Source of the DNA: Escherichia coli
Lineage (GTDB): Bacteria > Pseudomonadota > Gammaproteobacteria > Enterobacterales > Enterobacteriaceae
Length of the DNA stretch: 64,000 nucleotides
Strand: one strand, 5' to 3'
Assembly: GCF_024502345.1 (NCBI RefSeq)
Contig: NZ_JALDNN010000001.1
The notes beneath the pieces were generated by a model, which did not search any database, had not been told where the DNA came from, and was given only the letters and a program-made list of their open reading frames with translations. The stretch's first letter is position 1; every line of letters begins with the position of its first letter. The position numbers and the translations under genes are program-made. Positions 41,816 through 42,487 of the stretch are shown in pieces.

Positions 41816-42130
41816 TTAATTTTCGAAAAATTGCTTCACAGCCCAGCCACCATGACCACCTGGAGTTATGAATGAAACAAAACCTTTGTCATCGACGCTC
41901 TGGATTTCTACCGTCATTGATTCATCTAACACGCGACATTTATTGGATGTAATGAGACTCAGCATAGCCTGTTGGTCATTGTCCTGGATGTAACTGATCA
42001 TCTCGTAAAAGTCAGTTAACTTTTTACAGTTAAATGTACCTTCTTTAAGTGTTGCGCTGTCTCCGTGACTTAGTGCGAATGCATTTGGCATCATTGCCAC
42101 AAAGATGACGGTAACGAGTAGTTTTTTCAT
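41816..42130 (-). CDS. hypothetical small secreted protein (104 aa, 2 Cys)
   Basis: signal peptide MKKLLVTVIFVAMMPNAFA; low-GC islet; 9 bp downstream of preceding ORF. Confidence 0.6.
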   Translation of the reverse strand: MKKLLVTVIFVAMMPNAFALSHGDSATLKEGTFNCKKLTDFYEMISYIQDNDQQAMLSLITSNKCRVLDESMTVEIQSVDDKGFVSFITPGGHGGWAVKQFFEN

Positions 42131-42139
42131 TTTAGCCTC

Positions 42140-42487
42140 TTATAATTCAGAACATTCACTGATGTTGTAAGTGCCTTTTCTACCATCATCGTTTACGAGA
42201 TGTAGCACGAAGATGATGGGATTGGCATCAATGAAAGATACAGAGACGTTCCCGCTTTCGGTGCTATACATCTTTGCAATCTGTTTTTCACCAATATATG
42301 AGAGATCCCAACTCACTCCGTTCAAGCTAAAATGCATCTGTTTGCCGTCAATATCGATGGAGGATTGTGCCGTAACGGTTTTCCCATTGCTGCCAATTTG
42401 ATCCTGCTGAAGAGCATCACATTTATAGGAGCTTGCATAAGTAGATAGAGGTAGTAGCAGAAGTGCAGCAAAAATTTTACTCTTCAT
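42140..42487 (-). CDS. hypothetical small secreted protein (115 aa, 2 Cys)
   Basis: signal peptide MKSKIFAALLLLPLSTYA; RBS AGGGA; low-GC islet. Confidence 0.6.
   Translation of the reverse strand: MKSKIFAALLLLPLSTYASSYKCDALQQDQIGSNGKTVTAQSSIDIDGKQMHFSLNGVSWDLSYIGEKQIAKMYSTESGNVSVSFIDANPIIFVLHLVNDDGRKGTYNISECSEL

Follow-up and report, generated by a model that had tools for sequence, protein, structure and literature searches.

Two probable single-disulfide export proteins encoded on the decayed stump of a defence island at the thiM riboswitch of Escherichia coli

T4 Spackle and P1 Sim are small exported exclusion proteins of the periplasm, which are encoded by accessory genes of phages or prophages and shield the envelope of their host. 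The AID and rAID systems of Bacteroidales are arrays of orphan immunity genes associated with recombinases, and the MliC/PliC family (PF09864) is defined by its SxSGAxY and YxxxTKG motifs. Here, we describe two adjacent genes, termed A (positions 42140-42487, minus strand) and B (41816-42130, minus strand), in a stretch of 64,000 nucleotides of the Escherichia coli contig NZ_JALDNN010000001.1 (hereafter the window). An earlier note on this stretch had described an acquired two-gene operon for small secreted proteins with two cysteines each, and had named toxin/immunity, inhibitor, and stress-protection roles as candidates for such pairs. We hold with high confidence that A and B are real genes for mutually unrelated, exported single-disulfide proteins, transcribed as one operon, and that they are accessory genes of a mobile defence island, present here as a remnant. 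As an object this is of an ordinary kind: accessory genes orphaned on an island that has decayed, and not a new system.

Gene A encodes a precursor of 115 amino acids with a predicted mature part of 97 residues (10.6 kDa, isoelectric point 4.7), and gene B a precursor of 104 amino acids with a mature part of 85 residues (9.5 kDa, isoelectric point 4.7). The 9-bp spacer between them (42131-42139, minus strand) reads GAGGCTAAA on the coding strand. The junction as a whole is TAA-GAGGCTAAA-ATG, with GAGG 5 nt before the ATG of B, and B thereby has a Shine-Dalgarno sequence of its own directly behind the stop codon of A. The start of A reads AAGGGAAAAT-ATG, with the Shine-Dalgarno sequence AAGGG 6-7 nt ahead of the start codon. 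Both this sequence and a -10 box, TATAAT at 42537-42532, lie in the 5' region of the operon (42488-42573, minus strand), which is ~76% conserved with other islands; a good -35 box is not present upstream of A in the window. A terminator-like hairpin (41780-41793, minus strand) is found 23 nt past the stop codon of B, inside a stretch that is homologous with other islands and whose homology stops near 41770-41777. With one upstream -10 box, a 9-bp gap with a Shine-Dalgarno sequence for the second gene, and one downstream hairpin, A and B form one small operon as far as the DNA can be read, in agreement with the earlier note.

Both precursors begin with a predicted Sec-type signal peptide, MKSK-IFAALLLLPL-STYA for A (cut after TYA18, before SS) and MKK-LLVTVIFVAMM-PNAFA for B (cut after AFA19, before LS). 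Each has a basic n-region, a hydrophobic core of 10-11 residues, and small residues at -3 and -1, and inspection of the sequences revealed a lipobox in neither. Each protein contains exactly two cysteine residues, C23 and C112 in A and C35 and C65 in B. All four are kept in alignments of the orthologues; among more distant relatives, the pair is kept in at least 90% of the A family, while C35 and C65 are invariant in the B family. The description of both products as signal peptide-bearing proteins with exactly two cysteines is therefore borne out by our reading of the sequences and by the conservation of these residues among orthologues. Both proteins would be released to the periplasm and each would be oxidized to form a single disulfide bond.

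Orthologues from Klebsiella, Citrobacter, Buttiauxella, and other enterobacterial contigs are 69-97% identical for A and 74-85% for B. In the alignments, both proteins vary most in their signal peptides and less in their mature parts. Pairwise ratios of nonsynonymous to synonymous substitution rates (dN/dS) between the window copy and those of Klebsiella, Citrobacter, Buttiauxella, and others were 0.03-0.11, at a dS of ~2, which is saturated. These low ratios show that A and B are real genes under constraint.

Structure models point to small β-rich domains for both proteins. The AlphaFold model of B, which is good (predicted local distance difference test, pLDDT, 83), shows a five-strand barrel of the SH3/Tudor type, whose second and third strands are separated by an insert of two helices. 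B thus has the five strands expected of an SH3-type barrel in this model, while no SH3-family sequence match was found for it in Pfam. A Foldseek search with B returned many uncharacterized secreted proteins and lipoproteins of ~105 amino acids, and its neighbours in the AlphaFold database include proteins of about this length annotated as SH3b, lipoprotein, or DUF2845. For A, the model is of low confidence (pLDDT 61) and predicts eight antiparallel strands forming a β-barrel. The protein, whose mature part has 97 residues and lacks a C-terminal aromatic signal, is too small for a membrane barrel. Cys23 of A lies in the first predicted strand and Cys112 in the last, whereas Cys35 and Cys65 of B lie in predicted strands on either side of the helical insert. 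In the models, this placement is consistent with one disulfide in each protein, which in A would join the first strand to the last and in B the two strands next to the insert. In RefSeq and UniProt, B carries the name "outer membrane protein" (WP_000735648.1, ECs_2910), a legacy of the Sakai annotation. We rejected this assignment, as the cleavage site of B between AFA and LS offers no cysteine, the protein has no β-signal, its C-terminus reads QFFEN, and the fold is the wrong one.

Neither protein could be assigned to a described family. Searches of A and B, including all members of the broadened alignments, against NCBIfam, Pfam, and PADLOC returned no family at a meaningful threshold, and profile searches of all PDB sequences with A and with B were empty. 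The statement that the two proteins are unrecognizable therefore stands, and homology to a characterized housekeeping family, which would have spoken against it, was looked for without any such family being matched. Neither belongs to a known anti-phage defence system as modelled in PADLOC-DB 2.0, where A had no match and B only one below threshold, to HEC-01B (E = 0.019, 13 bits). The possibility that A and B are diverged duplicates of each other was rejected, since hhalign pairs only their signal peptides, which marks them as unrelated. In E. coli O157:H7 the genes correspond to ECs2909/ECs2910 and have been "hypothetical" since the first genomes. We found nothing in the literature on ECs2909, ECs2910, or the WP accessions, and no paper naming thiM together with rcnR.

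Relatives of the two proteins are rare. A joint A and B profile run with HMMER over 1.84 billion representative proteins found only 18, in ~6 clusters for A and ~8 for B, and a scan of 100,044 species, each represented by one genome, found a close relative of B in a single genome, that of Citrobacter sp. MGH106. Iteration of the B profile led to proteins of ~104 amino acids from Pseudomonas and Stutzerimonas, at 25-33% identity and all "hypothetical". Two full-length, near-identical PHROG matches (phrog_35183 and phrog_33226) would hint at a phage origin. However, tblastn against 50,697 phage genomes revealed no copies of A or B, even with distant family members included as queries, and we rejected a phage origin on this basis. 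The PHROG matches probably stem from mis-delimited prophage predictions. The sole match in IMG/VR is an island with B alone, together with an integrase and a primase. A relative of B (36%) is located among genes for small membrane proteins on a Cronobacter plasmid with phage-like genes. Carriage of the closer copies by plasmids was rejected, as the only close "plasmid" match is a 439-kb record containing the chromosomal genes from yegT to apbC, which is probably a misassembly.

In the window, A and B are part of a low-GC islet (41705-43977) of 2,273 bp, which stands in place of 90 bp of the spacer between rcnR and thiM that measures 222 bp in strain K-12. From ~41750 to ~43950 the GC content is 31-42%, against ~52% in the flanks. 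The low GC content and the replacement of the K-12 spacer confirm that the islet was acquired. The order of genes is a yehA-like fimbrial gene, rcnB, rcnA, rcnR (41434-41706), the A/B islet, thiM (44112-44900), and thiD, with the thiamine pyrophosphate (TPP) riboswitch of thiM at 43978-44077 on the plus strand (Rfam match 43981-44077). The first 82 bp of this riboswitch (43978-44059) constitute the attachment repeat, a second copy of which lies at the opposite end of intact islands.

One such intact island was found in E. coli PEC389. It measures ~11 kb and starts, next to rcnR, with an 82-bp copy of the riboswitch start, a tyrosine integrase, a 191-aa gene, and a TIR-NTPase. These are followed by a 185-aa serine recombinase, B, A, a 74-aa secreted protein, and IS1, and then by a DUF6998 protein (PADLOC mREase_II), a 79-aa helix-turn-helix (HTH)-like gene, the complete riboswitch, and thiM. 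Islands of the same type, with a duplicated segment of the riboswitch, occupy thiM in Klebsiella pneumoniae and Citrobacter. The repeats are located at 5708-5789 and 16600-16697 in the PEC389 locus (L019), and at ~4248 and 14529-14602 in the Klebsiella locus (L011); the duplicated part comprises the first 82 bp, or 74 bp in Klebsiella. This duplication at the island ends shows that the family integrates into the TPP riboswitch of thiM and supplies a replacement for its 5' part. A and B are part of the backbone, or of the edge, of these integrase-bounded islands, which also carry primases (DUF5906/VapE) or a DEAD/ResIII helicase and thus resemble satellites or integrative mobilizable elements.

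The islet of the window is the decayed stump of such an ~11-kb, integrase-bounded defence island once inserted in the thiM riboswitch. Everything between the far attachment repeat and the recombinase has been lost from the window and from the O157 copy. At its thiM-proximal end, the 79-aa gene annotated as "HTH-like" or "transcription factor" remains (43539-43778, minus strand), with 94% identity to the copy in PEC389, no NCBIfam match, and only the near-identical phrog_30666 as a further match. Between it and the operon lies ~1 kb of presumably decayed island DNA (42574-43538; 31-35% GC), whose ORFs reach 42 aa at most and which neither matches Rfam nor resembles the other islands. A hidden gene or noncoding RNA in this gap was rejected, as Rfam returned only the TPP riboswitch and no longer ORF is present. 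There, tblastn with island proteins recovered only one trace, at 42637-42714 (E = 0.002), where 26 aa match the C-terminal end of the integrase from the Klebsiella island. Since the native 90 bp, presumably the thiM promoter region of K-12, have been lost in the window, thiMD must be transcribed from island DNA. Separately, a database protein (P0044) joins the first ~48 residues of the 79-aa HTH-like protein and the C-terminal half of a protein from the A family, which implies a deletion between these two genes in another genome.

Among 5,426 complete E. coli genomes, the full islet was present in 339, mostly of O157:H7, and the A and B gene pair in 343, leaving 94% without it. A ~78% identical version is carried by 4 of the 343, PEC389 among them. 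In the matches listed, A and B are annotated as intact in every E. coli carrier, with the rest of the island gone, and the copies of the 339 carriers are ~99% identical.

Comparison of the islands revealed that the position held by A and B is a variable slot. It contains A and B in E. coli, Klebsiella, Buttiauxella, Citrobacter, and locus L023, but A together with a 38% identical paralogue, A', in one variant, B alone adjoining a cI-like repressor in an island with an integrase and a DUF5906 primase in another, and, in a third, a distant B whose partner is an unrelated secreted protein of 96 aa with two cysteines. The only part common to the Klebsiella island and the B-only island (L007) is the 310-bp B gene. 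In at least 8 independent contexts across Enterobacteriaceae, Pseudomonas, and Stutzerimonas, a small site-specific recombinase is encoded no more than 1 kb from a B-family gene. Most often it is a PF00239 serine recombinase of 185-207 aa, with a tyrosine recombinase of 184-192 aa at the same place in some Pseudomonas variants; loci L021 and L024 are exceptions and have no recombinase nearby. The cargo on the recombinase side varies, and includes the PADLOC candidates ThsB-like TIR/PDC-S60, PDC-S15, PDC-S47, PDC-S06, and mREase_II, as well as Eco29kI, EcoRII, and BglII restriction-modification systems. Two Pseudomonas islands (L031 and L032) are homologous across B as far as the recombinase gene and divergent beyond it. 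We rejected the idea that the recombinase inverts a promoter or drives phase variation, as no convincing inverted repeats were found around A, B, the promoter, or the recombinase in six loci.

The same islands hold more small exported two-cysteine proteins, namely a 128-aa protein resembling A and a family of 65-74 aa, here termed C. Genes of family C (L019, 12844-13068; L003, 5609-5815; L004, 3996-4202; L005, 2586-2783; L039, 2968-3195) adjoin A in intact islands, and the family is missing from the window. Its homologues, at 40-47% identity, are stand-alone, promoter-bearing genes in virulent myophages of Klebsiella and Citrobacter (Stephanstirmvirinae). An alignment of the region upstream of A in six loci (L003, L004, L005, L011, L019, and L023) showed that intact islands have ~110 bp in common there, with two repeats of the type TTGAT-N7-ATCAA and 3-4 GATC sites before a TATACT box. 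A 52-aa ribbon-helix-helix-like gene is found near these repeats in intact islands. In the window, the repeats are degenerate and the -10 box is kept. The repeats are probably operators for a regulator of the island, or could constitute a Dam-sensitive site.

As to function, we tentatively favour, as a possibility and well short of a conclusion, that A and B shield the cell envelope of the island's host from within the periplasm. Each would do so on its own, as a small binder or inhibitor. The target could be incoming phage, as in superinfection exclusion, bacterial effectors or bacteriocins acting in the periplasm, as for orphan immunity proteins, or lytic enzymes, as for PliC/MliC. This reading is suggested by the location, size, and fold types of the two proteins, by their interchangeability, and by their company, which consists of anti-phage cargo, other small exported proteins, and one family, C, that is shared with lytic phages. 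Several observations weigh against it. No homology of A or B to a characterized inhibitor, immunity, or exclusion protein was found in Pfam, NCBIfam, PADLOC, or the PDB, the 50,697 phage genomes contained zero relatives of either, and in no context does an effector or toxin gene adjoin them. Purifying selection is strong, with ~80% identity retained across genera, unlike in fast-evolving exclusion proteins. Retention of the genes is itself weak evidence for selection, because most E. coli carriers belong to one clone complex (O157:H7). Finally, binding in the periplasm leaves the constant small-recombinase neighbour without explanation. That A, B, and C together represent a new class of periplasmic protection against phage entry or effectors, serving as the "anchor" beside a recombinase-driven cargo hotspot from Enterobacteriaceae to Pseudomonas, strikes us as unlikely.

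Alternatively, B, with or without A, would serve the island itself, in connection with the neighbouring recombinase or cargo-swap hotspot or with transfer, for example by excluding related islands or helpers at the envelope, or B would be a mere conserved "anchor" flanking the recombinase site. The persistence of this neighbourhood at 25-33% identity between B proteins in at least 8 contexts, the homology of the two Pseudomonas islands that runs through B to the recombinase gene and is then lost, and the primase and helicase genes that give the islands their satellite-like character are all in line with such a role. Once exported, however, a 9.5-kDa protein is in no position to act on DNA, and with no inverted repeats bracketing A, B, or the promoter, an invertible switch is unsupported. 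In addition, two loci do without a nearby recombinase, and the genes of the window are intact although their recombinase is gone, so that we regard a role centred on the element as improbable. The proposal of a toxin/immunity or toxin/antitoxin pair, in which one protein is harmful and the other neutralizes it, fares far worse. In its favour, the two genes are tightly coupled on an acquired islet. Yet both proteins carry signal peptides, neither has the signature of a toxin, nuclease, pore, or enzyme, and no PADLOC match exceeds the threshold. Moreover, the check on co-occurrence that the earlier note had asked for showed that A and B are not obligate partners, as they are swapped or missing in the variants with A and A', with B alone, and with a distant B beside the 96-aa protein. 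The variable partnerships and the lack of a toxin-like domain essentially exclude this proposal, and with two unrelated proteins, both exported, in a slot of changing occupants, the idea of a functional pair is not supported either.

Protection of the periplasm against stress, or the handling of metals or other ligands in the manner of HdeA/HdeB or RcnB, would suit two small acidic periplasmic proteins with one predicted disulfide each and tandem genes, and the calycin-like barrel modelled for A is a fold that often binds ligands. The genes adjoin rcnR-rcnA-rcnB in E. coli, and there is possible induction in minimal medium and plant juice, in data whose mapping is unverified. Against this, neither protein resembles HdeA/B, RcnB, CusF, or ZinT in Pfam or NCBIfam, HdeA/B are all-helical where A is all-β and B SH3-like, and the genes travel with defence cargo rather than with stress genes. 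The adjacency to rcnRAB is accidental and follows only from the insertion site, as the Klebsiella and Citrobacter islands at thiM have no rcn genes beside them, and a link to nickel or cobalt homeostasis was rejected accordingly. We consider a stress or ligand function quite unlikely on balance. The genes could also be functionless relics in E. coli, chance survivors of island decay in silent, AT-rich DNA covered by H-NS. The deletion of the remainder of the island, the degenerate operator repeats without a good -35 box, and the lack of the pair in most of the species fit this picture, and the near-identity of the 339 carriers reflects clonality, not selection. On the other hand, the ORFs, Shine-Dalgarno sequences, -10 box, and terminator are all intact, the remnant is common to O157:H7 and unrelated small-genome strains, and transcription has possibly been detected, again with unverified mapping. 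We judge that the genes are probably not inert in this way, and give the relic explanation little chance.

If A and B do protect the envelope, as we tentatively favour, island-borne defence would gain periplasmic components, and their placement as exported accessory proteins of defence islands makes a protective role cheap to test. Were the wider class of A, B, and C to exist, it would amount to an exported first line of defence that has been missed by catalogues built on cytoplasmic systems. The context is arguably more useful: the TPP riboswitch of thiM serves as an attachment site for which the island brings a replacement copy, and anti-phage cargo is swapped at a slot flanked by a small recombinase. 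If A and B are inert, the locus would still provide a well-dated example of island decay.

Two further features were seen in the neighbourhood of the islet. The rcnA gene (40489-41313, minus strand) encodes 274 aa here, compared with 279-287 aa (840-864 bp) in O157-type records; the His-rich loop is presumably where these lengths differ. On the other side, yegX (glycoside hydrolase family 25; 45753-46580) is split by an in-frame stop, with one ORF ending at 46046 and the next starting at 46083, in agreement with the near-identical genome MLI023K1, where the gene is annotated as an "internal stop" pseudogene.

Compared with the described systems, A and B show partial likenesses. As to MliC/PliC, the periplasmic lysozyme inhibitors, neither A nor any of the 10 A-family members had an MliC match at E ≤ 10 in a Pfam scan. 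The SxSGAxY and YxxxTKG motifs are absent from the A alignment, where the nearest strings are STESGNV and GRKGTY, and many unrelated small barrels outscore MliC/PliC against a model with a pLDDT of only 61. B shares the five-strand barrel of bacterial SH3-like domains (SH3b/Tudor type), as its confident model predicts, but the generic fold has neither its two-helix insert nor its conserved disulfide, and B has no SH3 match in Pfam. The pair also recalls hdeAB, the operon for the acid-stress chaperones of the periplasm, which likewise encodes two small acidic proteins in tandem on an acquired island; HdeA and HdeB are, however, homologous to each other and all-helical, whereas A and B are mutually unrelated, mainly β by prediction, and match nothing in Pfam. 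The arrays of AID and rAID resemble the slot in that variable sets of small exported proteins lie by a site-specific recombinase on mobile islands. They differ from it in that the A/B islands hold only 1-4 such genes, with no effector fragments and no known immunity families, in the type of recombinase, and in the adjacent cargo, which is anti-phage and not anti-bacterial. To T4 Spackle and P1 Sim, finally, A and B have no relationship in sequence or fold and, unlike them, are absent from the phage genomes searched, but they are likewise small proteins with predicted signal peptides, encoded by accessory genes of a mobile element.
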